From the IMG/VR virus record IMGVR_UViG_3300044557_000107, positions 75,821 through 139,820 of that record: a stretch of 64,000 nt of DNA; one strand, written 5' to 3'. This stretch comes from a virus (Duplodnaviria; Caudoviricetes). The first letter of the stretch is position 1; every line of letters begins with the position of its first letter. Of the stretch, positions 25,824 through 62,411 are shown one piece after another. The notes beneath the pieces were generated by a model. The model saw only the letters and a program-made list of their open reading frames with translations. It was not told the origin of the DNA and did not search any database. The translations under genes and the position numbers were made by a program.

Positions 25824-26513
25824 ATGACTATTAAGAAAAATCTTGGAGTTACTTTGATGACCTTTGGTGCAACTTTAGCACTAGGACTGGGAGTTAGCTC
25901 ACAAGTACACGCAGATACTCAAGTGAATGCAAATACGATTAAAGTTACTCAGGGTGATACACTAGGTGCTATTGCTAAAGAACATGATACGACTGTAGCG
26001 TCTTTAGCTAACGCTAATGGACTAGCTAACGAGAATTTGATTTATGTAGGAGACCAATTAACACTGCCAACTACGGGGACTTATCAAGTAACTGCTAGTG
26101 TCCCACATAAGAATGCTACAAATAGTACCTATAAAATGCCTACTTCAGGTAATGCAAGTAACAGTGTAAGCACATCAAATAGTTCAAGCAATACCACAGA
26201 AACTACAGCAGGCAGTCAAACATCAAGTACATCTAGTTCCGTAGCTACGCCTACAAGTACTACAACAGCATCAACTAGCACTGTAAGTGCTGAACAAAGT
26301 GCTAAGGATTGGATTGCACAGAAGGAATCTGGAGGTTCTTATACAGCAAGCAATCCATCAGGAGCTTATGGAAAGTACCAGCTAATGAGCTATAACTTAA
26401 AGTGGGGTACTTCGATAGACGCCCAAGAACGTGCCGCCTCGGCGTATATTCATAGTCGATATGGTACATGGACGAATGCTAAAGCGTTCTGGATGCAACA
26501 CGGGTGGTACTAA
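25824..26513 (+). CDS. Secreted LysM protein with Apf-like (aggregation-promoting factor / lysozyme-like) C-terminus
   Basis: Signal peptide (VHA-D), LysM (V.QGDTL..IA...N.I.VG..L), S/T linker, AK.WIA.KESGGSY...YGKYQL...RYG.W..AKAFW..HGWY. Confidence 0.88.
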   Translation: MTIKKNLGVTLMTFGATLALGLGVSSQVHADTQVNANTIKVTQGDTLGAIAKEHDTTVASLANANGLANENLIYVGDQLTLPTTGTYQVTASVPHKNATNSTYKMPTSGNASNSVSTSNSSSNTTETTAGSQTSSTSSSVATPTSTTTASTSTVSAEQSAKDWIAQKESGGSYTASNPSGAYGKYQLMSYNLKWGTSIDAQERAASAYIHSRYGTWTNAKAFWMQHGWY

Positions 26514-26689
26514 TATATAACAGTTAGATAAAATTAGAGCCGTGTAGGTGGCACCTACAAAATGAATAAGGGAAGTCTGGTAGCTCTTTAAAACACTTCC
26601 AAGTGGTTATCCTCTGTGATTGGTGCTTATAAGCATTAAATGATAAGATATTTAGGGGACTTAGCACGGGTCTTCGCCCCACACAAAAC

Positions 26690-26760
26690 GCCTCTATAGT
26701 TCAATGGTAGAACACTAGTCTTGTAAACTAGGAATAGAAGTTCAATTCTTCTTAGAGGCA
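26690..26760 (+). tRNA. tRNA-Thr(UGU)
   Basis: Cloverleaf; anticodon arm CTAGT-ctTGTaa-ACTAG; GTTCAATTC T-loop. Confidence 0.85.
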
Positions 26761-26805
26761 TTATAGTATATAGTTTGTAGTGATAGATAGGGGGGTGGAA
26801 TCGCG

Positions 26806-26907
26806 TTGGACAGTATATCTGATGTAGCTTTAATTGCTTTGGTAGGGTTTCTAATTTACACAACTCATGTGTGGGCGTGGGCGTGGCTCCTAATATTTGT
26901 TCTTTAA
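26806..26907 (+). CDS. 33-aa hydrophobic peptide (not in ORF track)
   Basis: G-rich RBS, TTG start; MDSISDVALIALVGFLIYTTHVWAWAWLLIFVL. Confidence 0.55.
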   Translation: MDSISDVALIALVGFLIYTTHVWAWAWLLIFVL

Positions 26908-26926
26908 ATAGAGAGTAGGTGGTATA

Positions 26927-27052
26927 TTGGATAGAAACACGGCAGTCACCATATGGAACATCGGAGTCTTATGTTTCTCAGGATTCCTTGTACGGACCAC
27001 TAATAACCCATGGTGGGCGCTGATAGGATTACTAGCGTGTGCGCCATCATAA
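26927..27052 (+). CDS. 41-aa hydrophobic peptide, paralog of preceding ORF
   Basis: AGGTGG RBS, TTG start; MDRNTAVTIWNIGVLCFSGFLVRTTNNPWWALIGLLACAPS. Confidence 0.55.
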   Translation: MDRNTAVTIWNIGVLCFSGFLVRTTNNPWWALIGLLACAPS

Positions 27053-27070
27053 AATTATTCAAAATAAACG

Positions 27071-27285
27071 TTGACATTCTGTTTAACTACTAGTATACTA
27101 AGAACCATAAAGAACTTAGGTAACCATAGATGCGAAAACCAAGTATCTTAATAAGTTACTTAAGGATCTTTAAGTAAACTGGGCTGGGACAGCCCTTAGT
27201 AAATAGCTGTAACCTATAGATACTTTAGAGTATCCAAGTACGCAGTGTTCCTAGAAGCTCGTCACTTTAGTAACGAGCAGTTCAC
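27071..27285 (+). ncRNA. Orphan omega-RNA copy 1 with own sigma-A promoter (no tnpB)
   Basis: TTGACA-17-TATACT, 5' stem-loop, then GGGCTGGGACAGCCCTTAGTAAATAG...GTTCCTAGAAGC-hairpin-AGTTCAC homologous to scaffolds at 126-261 and 54246-54375. Confidence 0.8.
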
Positions 27286-27453
27286 TGCCCACCAGTACCT
27301 CCTGTCAAGGGTTATTGAAAACTGGTGTAAAACTAATATGTCGCGTCCAGTAATATGACTGGGGTGGGATGACTAAGGGTTGACACCTAACAAGACTGTC
27401 CGTTATCCTACATATTAGCAGGTAACCTTTGAGAGGCTTTGGGTTACCACAAT

Positions 27454-27541
27454 GGATAGGTACTCAAGTGGTTAAGAGGGTTGCTTGCTAAGCAATTAGG
27501 TCGTATAATGCGACGCGTGGGTTCGAATCCCACTCTATCCT
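27454..27541 (+). tRNA. tRNA-Ser(GCU)
   Basis: Cloverleaf with long variable arm; loop ttGCTaa; GGTTCGAATCC. Confidence 0.88.
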
Positions 27542-27572
27542 TTAAAATTATTAATAGGGAGGTGAATTGTAC

Positions 27573-27683
27573 ATGTACATGGAAGATGATAATATTAAGA
27601 TAGATCATAGTATTTTAGATACGGAATCGTGGTTAACCGATGAGGATATTTACAATATGTTCTTTGAGGAATCTATAAATTAA
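27573..27683 (+). CDS. Small acidic protein, 3' end altered by mini-element insertion
   Basis: GGAGGTG RBS; MYMEDDNIKIDHSILDTESWLTDEDIYNMFFEESIN*. Confidence 0.5.
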   Translation: MYMEDDNIKIDHSILDTESWLTDEDIYNMFFEESIN

Positions 27684-27921
27684 ATTTAAGAAAACATGTT
27701 ACTTTAGTTGACATTCTGTTAACTAGGGGTATACTAAAAACTATAAAGAACTTAGGTAACCATAGATGCGAAAACCAAGTATCTTAATAAGTTACTTAAG
27801 GATCTTTAAGTAAACTGGGCTGGGACAGCCCTTAGTAAATAGCTGTAACCTCTATGTGCTTTAGGGTACTCAAGCATGCAGTGTTCCTAGAAGCCCGTTA
27901 CTTTAGTAATGAGTAGTTCAC
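27677..27921 (+). mobile_element. tnpB-less IS605-derived mini-element carrying orphan omega-RNA copy 2
   Basis: Degenerate left-end hairpin (AAGAAAA-CATGTTAC-TTTA-GTTGACAT) after TCTAT, promoter TTGACA-16-TATACT, scaffold identical to copy 1 over ~100 nt, ends GTAGTTCAC. Confidence 0.72.
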
Positions 27922-27935
27922 GGAGGACATATAGT

Positions 27936-28091
27936 TTGAAATTAGATACGGATAAATTATGCCAGGCTATTGAAGATCTGGGATATACACCAGAGTTAAA
28001 CTATAGTAATCCCGGAATAGAAGTTGATGGGAAGCATATAGACTGGGAAGATATTGGAACAGTATTAGATGTAACTTCAAAAGTAGTATAA
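27936..28091 (+). CDS. Small hypothetical protein
   Basis: GGAGG RBS at 27922 then TTG; LKLDTDKLCQAIEDLGY... Confidence 0.55.
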   Translation: MKLDTDKLCQAIEDLGYTPELNYSNPGIEVDGKHIDWEDIGTVLDVTSKVV

Positions 28092-28100
28092 AACCAGCTT

Positions 28101-28830
28101 AATGCCATCCAAGGTTGCTATTAGATCTCAATGTAATTGAAGTTTAATAGCATCTCTGGATGCACGATCAGCGGCATAGCCGTGTAGACTGCGTGGGCCT
28201 GAAACATGGTCATTAAGATAACTCAATCGTTATCTTGGGGTAGTTAAGCCTAGCAACAGAATTTAGCCGTCTCCGAAGGTAGCGGGACGTTAATTTAGAA
28301 TACTATCTAATTGCATGATATAGACCGCAACGTCTCTAAACTATGGTACTAGTGTTAAGCGTGTGTATGAGGAACTATCAGTTTCGCCACGTCTAAGATC
28401 CATATTTTAAGTAAAAACGCAGTCGTCGGGTGAGGATACCCATCAGGTTACTGTCTCGTTAACTGTAGTAGTCAGCGGGTAGGCAAAAGAAAGTCTAGTT
28501 TGTGGGGTCTTAGGGGATAAAATGGAAGAATAAGGTACTTACGGAGTGGGGCACATAATATTCCAGCAACAGCAAATATGGCTTAACAACCATAGAACCA
28601 AAGTTGTACGTTAATAAGTGTCTTTGCTGTGATAGGACTAATAATCCCTATAACACTCCAGTAAGGTTTTAGTAGGTCAAGGCAGAGGCAGATAAAACTT
28701 GAAAAATAACTTAACTGCTAATGATGACTGAAAGATGGTCGGTAGATAATCCGGGCCCAGTTCTTGTGAAGGTAGCTAGAGCATGCAAATGACGGTTTGT
28801 GTGTTAGCCTAGCTAAAACTGTAACCTAAT
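28101..28830 (+). ncRNA. Large ornate structured RNA, most likely GOLLD (ROOL not excluded)
   Basis: ~730 nt without a long ORF, GC-elevated, inside a tRNA cluster; long-range helices 28102-06/28173-77, 28187-94/28417-24, 28445-51/28821-27, 28538-48/28654-65, 28569-76/28623-30. Confidence 0.6.
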
Positions 28831-28878
28831 AATTCGCACATTAAGATTACCCACCCAAGCCAATGGGAACACTATTAT

Positions 28879-28969
28879 ACAGGTGTAGCATAACGGCAGT
28901 GCAACTGGTTTATAACCAGTATTAGCTGTAGATTTCAGCAAGAAGTGGGTTCGACTCCCTCCACCTGTA
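28879..28969 (+). tRNA. tRNA with UAU anticodon (Ile) and long variable arm
   Basis: ACAGGTG/CACCTGT acceptor; ACTGG-ttTATaa-CCAGT; V-arm GCTG-tagattt-CAGC; GGTTCGACTCC. Confidence 0.8.
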
Positions 28970-29037
28970 TTTTAGCAAATGTAGAAATATTTGGGGAACC
29001 TATACCCCTTTATAGGAATATTTTGAAAAGCTAAAAT

Positions 29038-29160
29038 TGGAAGTACCCAAAATTAAGGTATCCCAAGTCTTATCAATATAAGATCAATATTGAGAGGAGC
29101 TAAAGAGTTAGAATAGCGATGCAGGTTCTAGCTTATGCAGGTTTAAATCCTGCCTTCCAC
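29038..29160 (+). pseudogene. Degenerate tRNA-like remnant
   Basis: TGGAAG/CTTCCA ends and GCAGG-tttaaat-CCTGC T-arm, but no valid anticodon arm. Confidence 0.35.
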
Positions 29161-29162
29161 AT

Positions 29163-29711
29163 TGTCCCGTAGTTGAGTGGTAACTATGTCTAAATAAGCT
29201 GGTGAAAAATGATAAATGGTAACTATATAATGGAAGTAGCCCCTAAAGAATATCCCTATAGGCTTATGCGTGGTAAATACGCTTACTCTCATAAAGTAGC
29301 ATATTGGAAATATTACGGATGTATACCAGAGGGTTTTGAAATTCATCATAAGGACGGAAATAAGCATAATAATGATATATCAAATTTATGTGCGGTTTCT
29401 AGAAAGCAACATCAGATAATTGAACACGTAATAAGAGGAAAAGTTCAAGTTCTTGTTAAATGTCCAGTATGTAATTCATTATTCATTATAGATAAACGCA
29501 AGACTCATTTGATAAACTCCAATAATAAAGTAACCTGTTGTAGTAGAAGCTGTTCTGGTAAATTTCCCTCACTAACTAAAATTGAGCAAGATAAAGGGAT
29601 TAACGAGAATATTATAATGGAGTTTACAAATCATGTATTACCATAAATATAAAACATTAATGTTTTATAAAACTAATGCGGATATCACAGGTTCGAATCC
29701 TGTCGGGACAG
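29163..29711 (+). pseudogene. tRNA gene split by an HNH endonuclease ORF
   Basis: 5' TGTCCCG-TA-GTTGAGTGGTA at 29163; 3' TGCGG-ATATC-ACAGG-TTCGAAT-CCTGT-CGGGACA-G at ~29677-29711; perfect 7-bp acceptor pairing. Confidence 0.65.
29209..29646 (+). CDS. HNH homing endonuclease
   Basis: HKVAY.......IHHKDGNKHNNDISNL HNH motif; C-terminal CPVC...CCSRSC. Confidence 0.88.
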   Translation: MINGNYIMEVAPKEYPYRLMRGKYAYSHKVAYWKYYGCIPEGFEIHHKDGNKHNNDISNLCAVSRKQHQIIEHVIRGKVQVLVKCPVCNSLFIIDKRKTHLINSNNKVTCCSRSCSGKFPSLTKIEQDKGINENIIMEFTNHVLP

Positions 29712-29726
29712 TTTAAAATACAATTT

Positions 29727-29814
29727 AGAGGGGTGTCAGAGTGGTCTAATGTGTCGGCTTTGAATACCGATGATCGTGATGAGCGATCCGTGGGTTCGAA
29801 TCCCACCCCCTCTG
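29727..29814 (+). tRNA. tRNA-Ser(UGA)
   Basis: AGAGGGG/CCCCTCT acceptor, G73, loop ttTGAat, long V-arm. Confidence 0.85.
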
Positions 29815-29822
29815 TATTATCA

Positions 29823-29893
29823 CGCGCATAGCTCAGCTAGCCAGAGCACCACGTGTGGTTGTGGAGTATGCCGGTGCAAATCCGAAGCGCGCG
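29823..29893 (+). tRNA. Degenerate tRNA (Pro-like, TGG), probably pseudo
   Basis: TAGCTCAG...AGAGC D-arm, CCAC/GTGG stem with 8-nt loop, imperfect T-arm. Confidence 0.4.
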
Positions 29894-29905
29894 ATAAAAT
29901 AAGTA

Positions 29906-29958
29906 TTGACTTAAGGATACCTTAGTGGTATCCTTATTTTAGTTAAATGAAAGAAGGA
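29906..29958 (+). promoter_or_regulatory. Repeated promoter/RBS cassette with palindromic operator (copy 1 of 3)
   Basis: TTGACT-TAAGGATACC-ttagt-GGTATCCTTA-TTTTAGTTAAATGAAAGAAGGA; near-identical at 42133 and 50499. Confidence 0.8.
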
Positions 29959-29965
29959 AATCTTA

Positions 29966-30421
29966 ATGGCAATTATGAGTGCAAAACAATATAGGAATCA
30001 ATTGAATAGTAAAGTACAGGATTCTGACAGTAAACTATATGAAGATGGATTAGCAAGGATTGAAAAAGCAATAGATGAAAGATTAAAGAGTGCTTACCCC
30101 GGTTGGTATGTAGAGGTATTTTTAGATACTGACACGATGCGGGGGAATGCTCTTAAAAATATTCGATTGAAACTAGAAAATCTGGGATATTTAGTTATCA
30201 CCTGCGAGAAAGATCCGCTGAATCCCCTTGTACGTGATCTATTTATGAAAATCATAGTTCCGGACCCAGATGAACCCACAATTTATTTCAAGAGAAGAAT
30301 TCAAAGTTTGCTCCCACGAAATGACCATTCCCAGCGAATTATGTTAAATAGTCACATGGATGAAGGGAACTCCGGACTAGTATTAGATATTCTCCGGGAA
30401 ACTATTAGAAAAGGGGAATAA
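29966..30421 (+). CDS. Hypothetical protein
   Basis: 151 aa directly after promoter cassette. Confidence 0.65.
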   Translation: MAIMSAKQYRNQLNSKVQDSDSKLYEDGLARIEKAIDERLKSAYPGWYVEVFLDTDTMRGNALKNIRLKLENLGYLVITCEKDPLNPLVRDLFMKIIVPDPDEPTIYFKRRIQSLLPRNDHSQRIMLNSHMDEGNSGLVLDILRETIRKGE

Positions 30422-38994: not shown

Positions 38995-39167
38995 AGTATG
39001 TATTAGTAACAACTTTAGGGGGCACTGAGTTCTACATGGGGAATAATGACCGGGCTACCACAGAGCTCTTACAAGCTCATACAGAGCCTTCTGTAATCTT
39101 AGCACTTAACTATGGGGAGAACCTTAATTTATCATCACAGTGGCACGTGAAGGGCATTCAGGACTAA
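38991..39167 (+). CDS. Small hypothetical protein (not in ORF track)
   Basis: GGAGG RBS, ATGA coupling, 58 aa MKYVLVTTLGG... Confidence 0.5.
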   Translation: MKYVLVTTLGGTEFYMGNNDRATTELLQAHTEPSVILALNYGENLNLSSQWHVKGIQD

Positions 39168-39180
39168 GGGAAGTGATTAC

Positions 39181-39660
39181 ATGCTGGAATCCTTAGAAGT
39201 AGAACGCGTAGGATATACAAAATCATTGAAAATTGGGGATATTGTTGGCTATCATTCAGCAACATATGTTCTTATTGAAATATCCAGTGTAGCCGTTGTA
39301 AGTGCCCAGAATGGACCTTTAATGTCTGCTAAGATTATTGTTCAAAAAGTAGGATCTAAAATGATTTCAAAAAGTGGATTTCAGTCTTCTCAAATTTTAA
39401 AGGCAAGCATCAGGGAAGATACTCGTAAGCTTAGCAATAGACAGTTTACTAAAACAGTTGGAATAGTTGAAAGGAACCCAAATAGTGGGGTTCTATATAG
39501 GGTAGCTGGCATTGAAAAATTATACTATGACTTTACCGATCTCATTGTTAACTATTGGGTTCAGGAAATACCTGAATGGTCCGACCAGGAAATCAATAAG
39601 GTACTTAAAGAAGATAAACTAAACAAATTTAAAGTAATAAATGGAGGAAGTAATGAATAA
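39181..39660 (+). CDS. Hypothetical protein
   Basis: 159 aa. Confidence 0.6.
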   Translation: MLESLEVERVGYTKSLKIGDIVGYHSATYVLIEISSVAVVSAQNGPLMSAKIIVQKVGSKMISKSGFQSSQILKASIREDTRKLSNRQFTKTVGIVERNPNSGVLYRVAGIEKLYYDFTDLIVNYWVQEIPEWSDQEINKVLKEDKLNKFKVINGGSNE

Positions 39661-45138: not shown

Positions 45139-46527
45139 ATGAAAGAAAAGTTAAACAAGGGGATTAAGGTCAGAATATTTCCTAATGAAGAGCAAGTGGG
45201 ACAAATTAGATTATCATTTATGTGGGCACGGAACTTTTATAACTATCTGGTTGAATACCAGAAAGACTACACCAAAGCTATCTGGATTATGCGAGATCGA
45301 GAAGGTGGATATAGAAAAGATAAGAATGGTAAAGTTATACTATTTGACAAGAAGGGTAATGAAAGTAAAACTGGTAAACCTCAGTTTAAGTATAAGGGAA
45401 ATGTATATCTAAGTAAGTTTGACTTGATGAAGTTAGCTTCACCTTATCGAAAGTTTCATAAAGATGCAGGTGCAAGTAAGGTGGACAGCCACGTTTATGA
45501 AATGACGGCCACTTCATTTTATCAAGCGATTCAAAATCAATATAATCCTAGAATGATTAATGCAAAAGCACCTAAGAAGCATAAATGGGTTACTTCATAT
45601 ACTAGTAGATACACACAAGCGTCTAAGTTTTCATCAACAAAGAAAAGTGGTTCTGTTCCAAGCATGTATAGTGTAACAAAACATTGGGTAAAGGTACCAA
45701 AGTTAGGCATGGTTAAATACTCTGGTTCACAATCATTGAAAAATATTAAGCCAAAGAACTTTACTATTACAGAGGATAAAACAGGTAAATTCTACATGAG
45801 TATTATTATTGAATATCATAAGGATATTAAATCTGTTAAGCCTGTAAAAGTAGTTGGGATTGACTTAGGGTTAGATACTCTAGCTATTACTAGTGAGGGT
45901 AAAAAATATAAGATTATTCCTTTCACTAAGAATCATGAAAGAACCCTAGCAATTAAGAGCAGAAAAGCAAGTAAGAGAAGATTATTCATGGAAACGGTTA
46001 TTGGATCTTCTAAGAATAAGGCAAAGCTGTTTCCACTTACTCAACATGATTTTCCTAGTGTTAATGAAGCATACAGGGGAAGAGCTTTAGTATATAAGCA
46101 CACTGCAAATCAACGAAATAACTATCTTCATGAAGTAAGTAGAAGCATTGTAGATTCTGCTGATGCAGTGGTTGTAGAAGACATTACCGCTAGTTTCATG
46201 ATGAAGGGTGGTAAAAGTAAGAAAACAGGTCGTAAGACTAAGAATAAGAGCGCCAAGAGTGCTAGTAATGCTAGTTGGAACAAGCTATTAGTATATCTAG
46301 AATACAAGTGTAAGGAAGATGGAAAACAGTTTATTAAAGTAAGCAAAAACTATACTAGTCAGATTTGCCATGATTGTGGTTATTTATATGAAAACTTGGG
46401 TGTACCAAATGGTGGTGACAATCGTTCTGTTCGTGAATGGGACTGCCCTAAATGTGGGAAACATCATGATCGTGACATTAATGCGGCTATCAATATTAAA
46501 AATAGAGGGTTAGAAGTTATTGATTAA
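45139..46527 (+). CDS. CRISPR-array-associated TnpB / miniature Cas12-like nuclease (RuvC intact)
   Basis: IKVRIFPNEEQ N-terminus, [32 protein letters not shown]; 462 aa with insertions; no IS ends seen. Confidence 0.85.
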   Translation: MKEKLNKGIKVRIFPNEEQVGQIRLSFMWARNFYNYLVEYQKDYTKAIWIMRDREGGYRKDKNGKVILFDKKGNESKTGKPQFKYKGNVYLSKFDLMKLASPYRKFHKDAGASKVDSHVYEMTATSFYQAIQNQYNPRMINAKAPKKHKWVTSYTSRYTQASKFSSTKKSGSVPSMYSVTKHWVKVPKLGMVKYSGSQSLKNIKPKNFTITEDKTGKFYMSIIIEYHKDIKSVKPVKVVGIDLGLDTLAITSEGKKYKIIPFTKNHERTLAIKSRKASKRRLFMETVIGSSKNKAKLFPLTQHDFPSVNEAYRGRALVYKHTANQRNNYLHEVSRSIVDSADAVVVEDITASFMMKGGKSKKTGRKTKNKSAKSASNASWNKLLVYLEYKCKEDGKQFIKVSKNYTSQICHDCGYLYENLGVPNGGDNRSVREWDCPKCGKHHDRDINAAINIKNRGLEVID

Positions 46528-46542
46528 TTTTAAAAATAAGTA

Positions 46543-46571
46543 TTGACATAAGGATTATTAAGAGGTATTAT
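46543..46571 (+). promoter_or_regulatory. Promoter for scaffold/array RNA
   Basis: TTGACA-17-TATTAT; shares AAAATAAGTATTGAC.TAAGGAT with promoter at 29906. Confidence 0.75.
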
Positions 46572-46577
46572 AATAGA

Positions 46578-46811
46578 TGTAAGTAAGTCATAAGGTTAAT
46601 CAAGCCTACTAAGAAGTGCAAGTCTTCTAATGACTATATGGGGTTTCTCAATCCTTGGTTAACTACGGGTTCCGTGAGCTATAGATGTTTTATAGACACT
46701 ACTCAGCATACCCTAAAAACATGATAGGTGTTAATCAAAGCTCAATTTATTGAGTGGGTAATAGCCTATTGAGACCTAGACATTTTAATAGTATAAGTAT
46801 ACTAAATAGGG
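46578..46811 (+). ncRNA. tracrRNA-like / split omega-RNA scaffold with anti-repeat
   Basis: Several hairpins; GGG-TTTCTCAA-TCC-TTGGTTAACTA echoes omega-RNA GGG..CCC-TTAGTAAATA; ACCTAGACATTTTAA (46774-88) is complementary to repeat AAAATGTACTAGGT. Confidence 0.65.
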
Positions 46812-46830
46812 TTTATTAGTCTTAATAACT

Positions 46831-47065
46831 CCCTAGTATGTACTCAAAATGTACTAGGTATGAGATAATTGTAACATAAATTTAATTTACTACTTACCCT
46901 AGTATGTACTCAAAATGTACTAGGTATGAGATGGGCGGTTCACTGGTGTTTATGTACAGTGACTCTAGTATGTACTTAAAATGTTACTAGGTACAAGACA
47001 TTATGTTTGATACGTATTTTAAGGCGTTCCCCTCGTATATATCCAAAATGTGCTAGGCATGAGGT
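46831..47065 (+). CRISPR. Mini CRISPR array: 4 repeats (36-37 nt), 3 spacers (30 nt)
   Basis: Repeat CCCTAGTATGTACTCAAAATGTACTAGGTATGAGAT at 46831 and 46897 (identical), degenerate at 46963 and 47030; unique 30-nt spacers 46867-96, 46933-62, 47000-29. Confidence 0.88.
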
Positions 47066-48471: not shown

Positions 48472-48972
48472 ATGAGTAACAAATATGTATTCTTAATTGA
48501 GGATAGGGCTAAAGGCATAGTTACATTGAAGAACCTAAAATTCGCCATGTCCCATTATGGAGGTCGTCTATGGATGATGACTGTAGTTCTTCCTCAAAAG
48601 ATTGGGGGAGGTTGGTATGAATCTTTGGATTATAAACTCCACTATATGTCTCCAAAAGAGAATAAAAATAATGTAATTAAGATGCTTACAAGGGATTCAG
48701 TTTCGTTAAAGGAAGCTATGCGAGCTAAACATAATTACTTATCGTCCTCTGGTAGAGAAAATCGTAAATTAAAATTAAAAATTATACCTTTACAATCTGC
48801 GAAGAGTATAATAAATAGTATTCCCCTAGAAGTAGAGGAGCCTCAAGGGCTTGGAAGAACTATACACCGTTTAAGAAAGATTAAGGAAAAGCAAAAAGAA
48901 AGATCGAGAGATAAGCAAAAAGAAAGATCGAGAGATAAGCAAAAGCAACATGGTCTACACCCTAAATTTTAG
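48472..48972 (+). CDS. Hypothetical basic protein with KQKERSRD tandem repeat
   Basis: 24-nt tandem repeat near 48889-48945. Confidence 0.6.
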   Translation: MSNKYVFLIEDRAKGIVTLKNLKFAMSHYGGRLWMMTVVLPQKIGGGWYESLDYKLHYMSPKENKNNVIKMLTRDSVSLKEAMRAKHNYLSSSGRENRKLKLKIIPLQSAKSIINSIPLEVEEPQGLGRTIHRLRKIKEKQKERSRDKQKERSRDKQKQHGLHPKF

Positions 48973-48987
48973 AAGGGAAGCATTAAT

Positions 48988-49311
48988 GTGAAACTAAAGG
49001 CAGAAGTTGAAGTTCTTGGAGTAACATATAAAATATTTACAGAAGTTACAGACTCGGATAATCCAAGGATTAAAGGACTTGATGGTTACTGTGACTGTGT
49101 TAATGAACTCGGGCACAAGATTTACATTGCGTATTTTTCAGAGGAGCGTAAGGCTTACGAAGCCGAAGTAATTCGTCATGAGCTAGTTCATGCATTCTTG
49201 TACGAGTCTGGCTTAGATACTCAGAGTACATGGGCAAGAGATGAGGAACTAGTTGATTGGATTGCAATCCAGTTTCCTAAGATGAGTAAAGCTTTCAAAA
49301 GTATTTCTTAA
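48988..49311 (+). CDS. HExxH metallopeptidase-like phage protein
   Basis: DGYCD...IRHELVHAFLYESGL...EELVDWIAIQFPK. Confidence 0.7.
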   Translation: MKLKAEVEVLGVTYKIFTEVTDSDNPRIKGLDGYCDCVNELGHKIYIAYFSEERKAYEAEVIRHELVHAFLYESGLDTQSTWARDEELVDWIAIQFPKMSKAFKSIS

Positions 49312-52395: not shown

Positions 52396-52839
52396 TTGGA
52401 TGATAAAAGCTTTAAGTGCCTGAATCAAGAAGAAACAGAAGAGAGTTCTGCATTATATGAGGCATTCTCCCACATGAGTGAGGAATATGATACACTATTA
52501 GCAAGATACTCTCTTATTAGAAATAATGAGAAGATCACTAATAGTATCTTTCTAGGAAGACAGTTTCTGTTTGATGCCTCTCAAGATATGCGATATGATC
52601 CAGAGGATATTAAAGGTCCCAGCCATGATGATTTTTCTGATTTATTTCCTAATACTATTATCAACTATGCTAAAACTAGAAAGTCTAGTGGAGATGCCTT
52701 AGCAGACGCTCTGTGTAATACAAGCAACTGCGAGTACTTTACTGAATGGCTCTACCAAGGCGACTATAAGAACAAACAGATATATAAAAAGAATCAAGAG
52801 AAGTTTGCTAAACTATGGATTTATCTTGATGCAGGGTAG
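52396..52839 (+). CDS. Hypothetical protein
   Basis: 147-aa ORF. Confidence 0.55.
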   Translation: MDDKSFKCLNQEETEESSALYEAFSHMSEEYDTLLARYSLIRNNEKITNSIFLGRQFLFDASQDMRYDPEDIKGPSHDDFSDLFPNTIINYAKTRKSSGDALADALCNTSNCEYFTEWLYQGDYKNKQIYKKNQEKFAKLWIYLDAG

Positions 52840-52994
52840 GAAGGAGGATATTATGTTCTTTAGGAAGAAAAAGAAAACCAAACATCGGTATCACATAGTT
52901 ATGGACTCTAATGGTTACAGAGTTCAGGCGGAGTTTAGCCTAGATGGGGAAATAACAAATGGGGACCAAATGAGGTACTTAGTCAAATATTTAT

Positions 52995-54375
52995 TTGTTT
53001 AGGGCAAGAAGACACGTTATTTCAATAACGTGATGAATTACTGATTGACAAATATAGCAATAGTAGTATAATAGAGATAAACAAAGGAGGTGAGAATATA
53101 TGTATAAAGGAATTAAACTTCAAATATATCCAAACTTAGAACAGCAACAACAGATAGTTGATAACTTTGGTTGTTGTCGGTTTGTGTGGAATCAGATGTT
53201 AAACATGCAGATTGAAAGGTATAAGAATAACCCAGATAGCAAATTCTTAAATGGATTTGCTATGAATTTTCTGTTAAAACAATTAAAATCTGAACACCCA
53301 TGGTTAAAACAAGTAGATAGTACATCATTACAAGATACTTGTGAAACTCTAGCAGTGACATACCAAAGGTTCTTCAAACATATTGGTAGTTATCCAAAAT
53401 TCAAATCTCGTAAATACCCTAAGAAAAGTTATAAAGCTAAAATGATTACTAATAACATTAGATTAGTGAATAATCATTATCTCAAATTACCTAAGTTAGG
53501 GGTTATGAAGTTTAAAGGTCGCTTAACTACTGACAAGATTAAATCTGCTACAATTAAACTAAGTCCAGCTGGTAAATTCTATTGTGTTTTATTGACTGAA
53601 TGTGAAAACCAAACATTATTTGATAAAACTAACAAGAACGTAGGTTTGGATATGGGTGTAGCAGATTTGGTTATTACTAGTGATGGTATTAAATACCCTA
53701 CTATTAGATTTGATAAAATCTTAGCTAAAAAGAAACATTATTGGGAGAAAAGATTAGCTAGACGTAGATTACAAGCTCAAAGAGAAATGGCAGGGGATAA
53801 ACATAATAAGGTACTAGAGCCTCGTGTATTAGCAGATTTTAAGAATGTTGAGAAAGCTAAAATCATGGTTGCTAAATACAGTGAAAAGATAGCTAATCAG
53901 CGAAAGGATTATCTGCATAAGATAACTACGGATCTAGTTCATCAATATGATGTGATCAAAATTGAAGATTTGAAAACCAAAAATCTTCTAAAGAACCACA
54001 AATTAGCTAGAGCTATTGCAAACCAAAGTTGGAGAGAACTCCGAAGTATGCTGGAATATAAATGTGAGTGGTATGGAAAACAGTTAGTCACTGTTAACCC
54101 TAGAAAGACTAGTCAAATTTGTAGTAACTGTGGTTATGATGATGGTAAGCATGAGTTAAATATTAGACAGTGGACGTGCCCTAAATGTGGTACCAACCAT
54201 GATAGAGATATAAATGCAGCAATTAATATCCTACAAGCATCATAAATACAAAGACTAACATGGGATGGGACAGCCCTTAGTAAATAGAGTAAACCGCTGT
54301 TTAGTATTACTAGTAATACTAGATAAGTTATGCTTGTTCCTAGAAGCTCGGTACTTTAGTACCGATGTAGTTCAC
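52995..54375 (+). mobile_element. tnpB-only IS200/IS605 element inserted 3' of TTTAT
   Basis: Left-end hairpin AAGA-CACGTTAT-ttca-ATAACGTG; right end GAAG-CTCGGTAC-ttta-GTACCGA...TTCAC; no tnpA. Confidence 0.88.
53100..54245 (+). CDS. tnpB: TnpB, RuvC intact
   Basis: [40 protein letters not shown]. Confidence 0.95.
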   Translation: MYKGIKLQIYPNLEQQQQIVDNFGCCRFVWNQMLNMQIERYKNNPDSKFLNGFAMNFLLKQLKSEHPWLKQVDSTSLQDTCETLAVTYQRFFKHIGSYPKFKSRKYPKKSYKAKMITNNIRLVNNHYLKLPKLGVMKFKGRLTTDKIKSATIKLSPAGKFYCVLLTECENQTLFDKTNKNVGLDMGVADLVITSDGIKYPTIRFDKILAKKKHYWEKRLARRRLQAQREMAGDKHNKVLEPRVLADFKNVEKAKIMVAKYSEKIANQRKDYLHKITTDLVHQYDVIKIEDLKTKNLLKNHKLARAIANQSWRELRSMLEYKCEWYGKQLVTVNPRKTSQICSNCGYDDGKHELNIRQWTCPKCGTNHDRDINAAINILQAS

Positions 54376-54446
54376 CGAACTTGTGGAGTCTACCCGATGG
54401 GCATATTCTAAGTATAGTTAGGATTGAGAAGGAAGGTGATTAGAAT

Positions 54447-55432: not shown

Positions 55433-56704
55433 TTGAAAAGTACAGCTAAGAACTATAAATCAATTACTGTTCGACTATACCCTAGTAAATCTCAAGAAGA
55501 TAAATTAAATCTAATCTTAGACCTTACTAAAGATTATAATAATACACTTATTAGGACTTTTAAAGAACGCCGTAGAAATATTGAGAGAAGTCCCTTGGAT
55601 AGAAAGTTAAAGCCCCGATTAGTACCAAATAAGATTAGCTTGTCCTACGTAAACACCGAGTATCTAAAAGAGTATCCGGTTTTTGAAATCGCCGGAACGA
55701 TCAACATTAAAGAAACAGCTAATAACGTTCTTGATGGATTCCTTAAGTATTATAGCCATACCCCGCATTTTAAAGTGTCCCCACCCGTGATTAAGAAAAG
55801 TAGTTACTCATATAATACTCGATTAGGTAAACGCAAGCACCTAGTAGTAGCTGATGCTAACAGTAAGTACCTACAAATTTCATTACCGAGTCTGGGGTTA
55901 GTGGCATGTACCAACAGTTCCCGACTTGCAAAGTTACCAGGAAAAGCCTACTTTTGTACTGTCTACAAGAATCGCCTTAATCATTTTTACCTAGCAATTA
56001 ATGTTCCGGGTGAGGTCACAAGTACAAAAAAGTGTCTTCCAGGGACTTCATTAAGCACTTTAAGTAAATCTAATAAAGTAGCCACCGTTGTGCTAGGCGT
56101 TAATCCTATGGCAAAAGTCTATGTTAATCAACAATGTGTAAAAACGTATTATCGTAGATCTAGTAAATATAATAGTCAGGTACAACAGTATAAACACCAG
56201 TTAGTAAAGTTTCGCAAGTCGGGCAGTAGTTCTCACTCTAAGCGGCAGATTAAGCGGTATCAAGAGACTTTAAGATTATATAACAAGTATTGTTTGAAAG
56301 AGCTTCATAGTAAACAAGATTACCTGCATAAAGTCTCTAAGGAACTTAGTCAAACCTATGATGTGGTTATTATTAACCGACCATATATGACGCATGATAA
56401 CGCTAAAAAGCTCCCTATTAGACTAACGATGGCTCGAAAACAGACCGGACTAAACATGCTCATTAAATATTTGGAATACAAAATGAGTTCATCCCATAAG
56501 ATACTTTTAAAAGTAACCTATAAGGATATTAGTAAATGGTCTTGTTCAGTATGTGGATTTAACAGCCAATACAATTTGATGTTAGAACCCAAGGAACTAA
56601 TCCAAATAACTTCATGGGTCTGTCCCCATTGTGGAACCCGACTGGATGTGAAGGACAATCTGGCGGCAAACATGCTTAAGTATGTAAACAAAACTATATC
56701 TTGA
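55433..56704 (+). CDS. Nuclease-dead TnpB homolog (TldR-like)
   Basis: ITVRLYPS..Q, LPSLG.V, DYLHKVS..L...YD, L..YLEYK, CSVC/CPHC; RuvC positions read ATVVLG (D>V), IINR (E>N), DVKDNLAAN (D>K). Confidence 0.75.
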   Translation: MKSTAKNYKSITVRLYPSKSQEDKLNLILDLTKDYNNTLIRTFKERRRNIERSPLDRKLKPRLVPNKISLSYVNTEYLKEYPVFEIAGTINIKETANNVLDGFLKYYSHTPHFKVSPPVIKKSSYSYNTRLGKRKHLVVADANSKYLQISLPSLGLVACTNSSRLAKLPGKAYFCTVYKNRLNHFYLAINVPGEVTSTKKCLPGTSLSTLSKSNKVATVVLGVNPMAKVYVNQQCVKTYYRRSSKYNSQVQQYKHQLVKFRKSGSSSHSKRQIKRYQETLRLYNKYCLKELHSKQDYLHKVSKELSQTYDVVIINRPYMTHDNAKKLPIRLTMARKQTGLNMLIKYLEYKMSSSHKILLKVTYKDISKWSCSVCGFNSQYNLMLEPKELIQITSWVCPHCGTRLDVKDNLAANMLKYVNKTIS

Positions 56705-61731: not shown

Positions 61732-61953
61732 TTAATTTAACCATTTATTGTAGATATTATCATAAGACACATTTATGATTTTAGCTAGTTTATCAAATAC
61801 CCGTTCACGTACAAGACTATCATCAACCCCTAGTAATTCGTAGACTCCTGGTAGTCCCTTGTAAAGTTGCTGGAAGGTCATTGACCGGTTTAATAACTGC
61901 CCTAGTTCATCAGTTGGGTATTGTTGCGTGTACCACTGTTTAATTGTTTCCAT
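61732..61953 (-). CDS. Early hypothetical protein
   Basis: YPTDELG...TF....G..DS..RER.F..LA motif; terminator hairpin 61710-32 follows. Confidence 0.65.
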   Translation of the reverse strand: METIKQWYTQQYPTDELGQLLNRSMTFQQLYKGLPGVYELLGVDDSLVRERVFDKLAKIINVSYDNIYNKWLN

Positions 61954-62411
61954 TAGTCCCAATCCTTTTCTAGTAAGTCCTCTACTAGTTCTGATAGTTC
62001 CACAACCTTTTGTAAGTCTGCTTGATTATTAATTAAAGTATTACGCTTAACGTCGTCCCCAATAAAGTCTACAATTTTATTATTGAAGCCTTGTTTAACT
62101 GTTAGTAACTTATAAAGTGCTTGGTAAGCTAAATACTCCATTAGATAACTAGGATCATCACCGTTATTAACAAGTAATTTATACAATAGTGTATCATCAT
62201 GATAAAAGGCAACTAAATCACTTAGCTTATTAAATAAGTCTAAACCGGATAGACTGCTGAAATATAAATCCACGGTTTCATCGTCCCAATAAAATACATC
62301 ATTAGTATTACTTAATAAGTCTTCGAAGTCTGTAATGGCTGGTTCATCATCAATGGTTGAAATTAAGTCTTTCATAACTTGCTTTGTAAGTTGCTTATCT
62401 ACATTTAACAT
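61953..62411 (-). CDS. Early acidic hypothetical protein
   Basis: GGGGGT RBS. Confidence 0.6.
   Translation of the reverse strand: MLNVDKQLTKQVMKDLISTIDDEPAITDFEDLLSNTNDVFYWDDETVDLYFSSLSGLDLFNKLSDLVAFYHDDTLLYKLLVNNGDDPSYLMEYLAYQALYKLLTVKQGFNNKIVDFIGDDVKRNTLINNQADLQKVVELSELVEDLLEKDWD

Follow-up and report, generated by a model that had tools for sequence, protein, structure and literature searches.

Omega-RNA cassettes lacking tnpB in the tRNA island of a Herelleviridae-like phage

Guide-only loci, the effector of which is encoded elsewhere, are known in viruses as mini-CRISPR arrays or solitary repeat units, and often target related viruses. Among transposable elements, PATEs often encode omega-RNAs to be served in trans (Meers et al. 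2023, PMC10055086). The PATE-like elements of Geobacillus stearothermophilus reported in the same work are protein-less, and feature the ends of resident TnpB insertion sequences; they carry an omega-RNA which needs a TnpB from elsewhere and has the right flank as guide, and are inserted 3' of the TAM (the motif next to the target) without target duplication. The same traits are found in the phage elements described here. Two cassettes of the tRNA island, called sa1 and sa2, fall in this described class of omega-RNA-bearing PATE-like elements. The two are quite probably PATE-like, tnpB-less mini-elements derived from the IS1341-type elements of the IS200/IS605 family which populate this phage lineage, and their RNAs would be loaded in trans for homing.

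The window, i.e. the whole stretch of 64,000 nt which was analysed, corresponds to positions 75821-139820 of a phage record which is 139,820 bp long and ends in direct terminal repeats. The phage is Herelleviridae-like; its large terminase is ~44% identical to Herelleviridae homologues from Enterococcus, Staphylococcus and Listeria phages. The host is probably a member of Lactobacillaceae, because the omega-RNA scaffold family discussed below is also present in Lactobacillus myophages, and in genomes of Lentilactobacillus, Secundilactobacillus and Liquorilactobacillus.

Anatomy and RNA family of the cassettes

The original prediction, that two stand-alone, promoter-driven omega-RNA genes without tnpB reside in the tRNA island, describes the two loci well. 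Their components, in window coordinates, are:

27071-27099, plus strand: sa1 promoter, TTGACA-17-TATACT; the -35 box (27071-27076) is resident, the -10 box (27094-27099) comes from the mini-element
27108-27172, plus strand: sa1 5' stem-loop, identified by folding, with which the transcript is predicted to begin
27180-27285, plus strand: sa1 omega-RNA scaffold; its last hairpin and GTTCAC are the transposon right end
27286-27305, plus strand: sa1 guide, the insertion-site flank and leader of the resident tRNA-Ser transcript
27454-27541, plus strand: tRNA-Ser(GCT), found by ARAGORN and Rfam, downstream of sa1
27672-27707, plus strand: sa2 left-end remnant; TCTAT, a TAM in degenerate form, is followed by ~18 nt and by the left-end hairpin, of which the left arm and the loop remain
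27708-27735, plus strand: sa2 promoter, TTGACA-16-TATACT; its -35 block does not differ from the resident block found at sa1
27744-27808, plus strand: sa2 5' stem-loop, identical to that of sa1
27816-27921, plus strand: sa2 omega-RNA scaffold and right end, matched by the covariance model
27922-27941, plus strand: sa2 guide, a flank which spans the RBS and the start of the next small ORF

The cassettes are 636 bp apart. Either promoter matches the sigma-70 consensus at 11 of 12 positions, and the two rank first in a promoter scan of the 3.5-kb tRNA island (26500-30000). Near-consensus promoters had been correctly foreseen, but the -35 box of sa1 is not part of the element: it is that of a promoter already resident in the phage. 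Both scaffolds are without an attached tnpB, and no protein-coding gene was found inside the cassettes in the ORF lists. The predicted identity of the long 5' stem-loop extends to a 108-nt sequence shared without a single change (27110-27217 in sa1, 27746-27853 in sa2). About 15% of the positions differ over the 3' 68 nt, and the 20 nt downstream of the scaffolds, i.e. the guides, are different, again as anticipated. No terminator was found between sa1 and tRNA-Ser, and the tRNA is probably co-transcribed with the cassette. A search with Rfam at gathering thresholds returned the four tRNAs only.

The assignment of the 3' part of the cassettes to a known type of RNA is based on a covariance model trained on 11 tnpB-attached scaffolds only. 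Both cassettes are matched at full length (model positions 1-125 of 125), sa1 at 27168-27285 with 110.5 bits, sa2 at 27804-27921 with 104.2 bits. As a term of reference, scores of 121-142 bits are obtained for the training members, and of 80.5 bits for a derivative in the related Lactobacillus phage Lbab1, the decay of which is visible. RNAalifold analysis of 15 scaffolds, taken from this phage, from others and from metagenomes, identified 32 base pairs, and compensatory changes occur in 18 of them. The variable stem differs between sa1 and sa2, and pairing is kept in both, confirming that the 3' halves have diverged in a manner that preserves the fold. All the 47 invariant scaffold columns are kept in both sa1 and sa2. 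The RNA part of the two cassettes is a true member of the structured omega-RNA family of TnpB.

Mini-elements and full elements in the phage genome

Homology to the RNAs located downstream of tnpB genes had been noticed at the outset, and holds; one detail, a GTTCAC end for the copy at 136-261, does not, as this copy ends in GTTCAT. Similarly, the cassettes had been regarded as two. Two are indeed found in the tRNA island, but the whole genome hosts eight scaffolds, three attached to tnpB (elements A, B and C) and five stand-alone (sa1 to sa5); BLAST E-values for the scaffold within the genome range from 1e-89 to 1e-11. The additional members of the set, and the tnpB loci relevant to this work, are:

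48883-49138 of the genome, minus strand: stand-alone scaffold sa3
61870-62125 of the genome, plus strand: stand-alone scaffold sa4
39137-39388 of the genome, minus strand: stand-alone scaffold sa5
1-261 of the window, plus strand: 3' end of tnpB B, which ends at 125, and its omega-RNA (136-261, end GTTCAT)
52995-54375 of the window, plus strand: full element A, including left end with hairpin and promoter, tnpB (53100-54245) and omega-RNA (54249-54375)
55433-56704 of the window, plus strand: nuclease-dead TnpB E, which has lost two of the three RuvC residues in the alignment to ISDra2 TnpB

Seven TnpB-like loci were counted in the genome. The RuvC D/E/D triad is kept in TnpB A, B, D and F, C is missing the first ~30 codons, and one locus is reduced to a C-terminal fragment. 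TnpB A has Pfam and PDB matches, and a phmmer E-value of 2.5e-59 against ISDra2 TnpB. TnpB B is 378 aa long with an intact triad, and its omega-RNA scores 135.6 bits with the covariance model. A Y1 TnpA (PF01797) was searched for in the phage, with no match; in phage Lbab1 a tnpA gene lies beside a tnpB carrying the same scaffold. Two additional observations may be recorded here. Element A breaks the 3' end of a small gene (window 52805-53002), the product of which is 65 aa long in this phage and 77 aa in a relative. The intact TnpB-like D (45139-46527) is followed by a promoter, ~250 nt of non-coding DNA and then hairpin repeats of ~36 nt (window 46528-47065).

The ends of full and stand-alone elements are built alike. 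At the left end of A, B and C, a motif of the TTTAT/TTTAC type is followed by ~18-22 nt, an imperfect hairpin, a conserved ATGAAT block, the promoter and tnpB. The left end of sa3, sa4 and sa5 is as in full elements, with TTTAT before it; the promoter is then followed by the 5' stem-loop and the scaffold. The right end consists in all copies of the terminal hairpin plus 9-10 nt, ending with GTTCAC (GTTCAT in sa5 and B), and the hairpin sequence is similar to that of the left-end hairpin, as in IS608-type elements. A mini-element comprises a left end (TTTAT, ~18 nt, hairpin), a promoter, a 5' stem-loop in which a relic of the tnpB 3' end is retained, and a complete omega-RNA scaffold, and has as guide whatever DNA adjoins its right end. 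The last codons of tnpB can be aligned with the apex of the 5' stem-loop, and mini-elements are therefore internal-deletion derivatives of full elements. They are not private to this phage. The same mini-element occurs twice in phage contig G001, and a shorter one is found in phage G003, 600 bp from the parent tnpB, with the same hairpin loop and a different stem. The short element of G003 was derived independently. In both G001 and G003 the left-end hairpin is kept, with TTTAT before it. Among 185,579 species genomes, none contains the 25-nt mini-specific sequence used as probe; a single metagenome match of the 25-mer was discarded as a chance match within a coding region.

Recombination has plausibly contributed to the set. 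sa5 is nested in a left end of the B/C type (genome 39137-39470, minus strand), and the 3' half of its scaffold, as well as the GTTCAT end, are of the B/C type too. This suggests that sa5 is a recombinant, made of the 5' part of a mini-element and a B/C-type 3' end, and that scaffold-to-scaffold recombination may have removed a tnpB. sa5 is identical in a relative. At the sa3 locus (genome 48540-49160, minus strand) a 62-aa C-terminal fragment of a different TnpB, along with its 3' non-coding sequence, comes directly after the right end. The arrangement suggests that a deletion took place beside the right end. The notion that this fragment belongs to the same family as the TnpB of a relative was dropped, being unsupported at the DNA level.

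Compared to sa3-sa5, the pair in the tRNA island is worn out at the left. In sa2 the hairpin is altered and preceded by TCTAT, and the remnant is still homologous to the TTTAT-plus-left-end region of sa3-sa5; in sa1 the left end is absent. sa1 and sa2 are degraded members of the mini-element class. sa1 is a mini-element which lost the left end, and the -10 box of which was fused, at an AAC microhomology, to the resident -35 box of the tRNA operon. The loss of the left end makes sa1 immobile, and would have it transcribed as leader of tRNA-Ser. The 14-mer around the -35 box is found in the window only at 27070 and 27707. The 108 identical nt and the captured -35 block which sa2 shares with sa1 would most simply be accounted for by gene conversion. 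On this reading conversion spanned the 5' 108 nt, and the divergent and yet paired 3' halves are two older scaffold variants; they denote mosaic ancestry, and are no evidence of selection on sa1 and sa2.

Occupied and unoccupied sites in related phages

Parts of near-identical phages were fetched via cluster members of flanking proteins, and made it possible to compare occupied and unoccupied sites. One case is element A. A 137-kb ENA relative (L052) carries an exact, scarless unoccupied allele, in which TTTAT is followed by the sequence starting at 54376. From this empty site it follows what the TAM is, that the right end is cut after GTTCAC, and that guide and flank are the same. For sa4 the unoccupied allele was found in two relatives, where GTTAT is followed by the guide, either perfect (L067) or with 2 mismatches (L068). 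The left junction of sa4 includes 21 extra bases (L066:4850-4870, genome ~61849-61869) after the shared GCCAA(T/G)TTAT, which are missing from the unoccupied alleles, and could represent flanking DNA of the donor, taken along from a TTTAT located upstream. sa3, together with the remnant of another TnpB element, makes up a 611-bp insert absent from a close relative.

At the site of sa1, 3/3 relatives lack the element; the -35 box and the sequence upstream of it are the same as here, and are combined in every case with a TATAAT of the relative itself. In one of the three (L055) homology restarts exactly at 27286, the first base past the right end, and the resident promoter leads into tRNA-Ser. 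The 5-mer beside the unoccupied allele is AATAT for sa1 and GTTAT for sa4, neither of which is TTTAT. No unoccupied allele of sa2 was found among the fetched loci of relatives. Insertion occurs 3' of the TAM with no target-site duplication, as is exact for A; in the case of sa4 and sa1 it is the right junction that is exact. Guides are insertion-site flanks, because they are collinear with the unoccupied alleles of relatives.

The guides were compared to other sequences as well. For those of sa1 and sa2 there is no second match in the phage genome at ≤3 mismatches in 16 nt, and all 8 guides, searched against the genome and the fetched loci, gave self matches only. In L055, where the element is missing, the resident promoter is followed by sequence identical to the sa1 guide. 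The flank, and the guide with it, may change. In a groundwater metagenome (X3) sa2 is present, and is joined at the right end to 28029; the 107 bases left out in between (27922-28028) end with TTGAT, and the guide is different. This junction may be the product of a transposase-type adjacent deletion. TTGAT at the end of the skipped bases is a TAM-like motif. In the same metagenome 27087-27431 is replaced; what stands there is no divergent cassette, but the alternative allele which L054 carries as well. Position 27921 is exactly where several metagenome contigs break off or diverge, and contigs encoding an identical flanking LysM protein break inside sa1. Searches of IMG/VR for related loci with the LysM protein and with TnpB E retrieved no relatives, and megablast and blastn against GenBank phages matched the scaffold part only, in Lactobacillus myophages, with no close relative.

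Other insertions were encountered along the way. In two relatives the position of sa1 is taken, after the resident promoter, by ~258 nt of unrelated, GC-richer and hairpin-rich sequence (L054:6373-6630, L057:6265-6348). Rfam found no match in it, and it may be an undescribed small RNA. The tRNA island of L055 is much shorter, and includes a gene for a NUMOD4 homing endonuclease of the HNH type (L055:6423-7064). A full TnpB element is found in the tRNA island of the 137-kb relative (L054:6840-8233). The tRNA island stands out as a hot spot where mobile nuclease elements of several kinds are inserted. In L052:4946-6369 a TnpB element of another family follows an AAA ATPase gene, and the corresponding site is unoccupied in this phage (window 50548-50555). 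TnpB insertions are reciprocally polymorphic between this phage and the 137-kb relative.

Explanations and comparison with known systems

The favoured reading, that sa1 and sa2 are PATE-like mini-elements served in trans, can be spelled out as follows. The RNAs would be transcribed from the cassette promoters, sa1 as leader of the tRNA-Ser transcript, and the 5'-terminal hairpin possibly protects them. An intact TnpB of the same phage, B or A, would load the RNAs in trans. The scaffold of C is the nearest to those of the mini-elements (85-88%), and B, which is ~90% like C as judged by eye, is the close intact relative of C; this makes TnpB B the best candidate nuclease. In a co-infecting related phage the complex would cut the unoccupied allele, made of TAM and guide, and recombinational repair would copy in the element and neighbouring markers, resulting in RNA-guided homing or marker exclusion. 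The cassettes had been envisaged as trans-acting guides for the TnpBs of the type encoded at 53100. The need of a TnpB in trans, should the RNAs act at all, is supported, with A or B as plausible supplier, but the idea of dedicated guide genes is not, as the guides are flanks. sa1 is unable to transpose, and its persistence could be neutral.

It is unlikely that the cassettes are inert relics, i.e. young deletion derivatives which had no time to decay, and are relevant, if at all, as promoters or leaders for tRNA-Ser and a small ORF. sa1 is interposed between the tRNA promoter of the phage and tRNA-Ser, with its own -10 box in place of the resident one; similar deletion derivatives are visibly decaying in Lbab1 and G001, and sa5 is altered at three near-invariant scaffold positions. 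Across the seven mini copies 94.8% of the cells of the 5' stem-loop are paired, with one double change only, and covariation is not significant among copies so similar. Against inertness, sa1 and sa2 have retained every invariant position, and score within ~10-30 bits of the attached copies. The mini architecture recurs, moreover, in three diverged phages with different stems. Mini-elements are also multi-copy, and abundant in a fermentation metagenome (X4), where the depth over the mini-specific 5' stem is ~20 times that of the flanks. In an RNA run (X6), analysed at the contig level only, other family members are found at high depth; one near-identical contig begins upstream of the sa2 promoter, and denotes neither a transcript start nor expression of sa1 or sa2.

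The suggestion that the RNAs guide the dead TnpB at 55433 fares worse. In E the first Asp is changed to Asn and the Glu of the triad is lost. The protein is under purifying selection (pN/pS 0.15 in the comparison with a 96% identical relative), and is a TldR-like candidate in a virulent-type phage. E is unlikely to be the partner of the sa1 and sa2 RNAs. It is only ~25-32% identical to the TnpBs owning this scaffold (32% over 136 residues with A), is encoded 27 kb away from the cassettes, and no link between the two was found; its own flanks are coding, with no adjacent non-coding RNA. That sa1 and sa2 are domesticated, purpose-built guide genes, with guides selected to direct a nuclease TnpB or the TldR-like E to host or phage targets, is very improbable: the strong promoters, the missing left end which fixes sa1 in place, and a conserved dead TnpB which has no RNA of its own and lies at such a distance would fit, but the collinearity of the guides with the unoccupied alleles of relatives marks them as flanks rather than acquired spacers, they match nothing else in the phage genome, a 107-nt flank deletion suffices to swap the sa2 guide in X3, and E is too remote from the TnpBs to which the scaffold belongs.

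Extending the favoured reading from single elements to the whole lineage is more tentative. Intact TnpBs, and full and gene-less omega-RNA elements, could possibly form a multiplex system of RNA-guided homing or exclusion directed against sister phages, though we hold this for less probable than the contrary. Were it so, the guide from each occupied site would be aimed at the corresponding unoccupied allele of competitors, and sa1, placed on the promoter of a tRNA operon, would be a step toward a fixed guide gene beneficial to its host. The value of the locus lies in the system that surrounds it, which includes four intact TnpBs, one conserved dead TnpB, five gene-less guide elements, and near-identical sequenced relatives. 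Since occupied and unoccupied sites are known to the base, RNA-guided homing between phages is directly testable. Such homing has been proposed before, and no demonstration of it was found in the literature. The lineage illustrates how tnpB may be lost from full elements, as in the recombinant-like sa5, and sa1 how a guide gene may be fixed by capture of a resident promoter. The combination of promoter, 5' hairpin and scaffold may also serve as a compact format for the expression of TnpB guides.

Set against the PATEs of G. stearothermophilus (PMC10055086), the elements described here differ in several respects. They reside in a virulent-type phage genome without tnpA, and carry a sigma-70-type promoter and a 5'-terminal stem-loop; in sa1 and sa2 the left ends are degraded, and sa1 has captured a resident promoter. 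With the canonical omega-RNAs of IS605/IS1341 elements (ISDra2 type; 8EXA, 8H1J) they share the location of the scaffold at the right end, its conserved multi-stem fold, and the position of the guide, which follows the scaffold immediately. In contrast to canonical omega-RNAs, the part overlapping tnpB is reduced to a hairpin, and a promoter, rather than excision from the tnpB mRNA, would define the 5' end.

The resemblance to TldR systems (Wiegand et al., PMC10705468) is confined to the presence in this phage of a dead TnpB homologue under selection. TldR guides are encoded beside tldR, and match a distal TAM-flanked promoter, whereas the sa RNAs are 27 kb from E, match their own flank only, and belong to another TnpB lineage than E (compare PMC10705468). 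Phage homing endonuclease genes, such as T4 SegB in a tRNA region, offer a parallel: the predicted cut of an unoccupied allele, the copying of element and markers, and the tRNA island as hot spot are in common. The predicted outcome is of the kind which a 2026 review names 'transposon non-restorative homing' (PMC13565253). The elements differ from homing endonuclease genes because recognition would be entrusted to RNA, and mini-elements lack a nuclease gene of their own. Lastly, while the spacers of mini-CRISPR arrays are acquired from their targets, the guide of a mini-element is set by the site of insertion.
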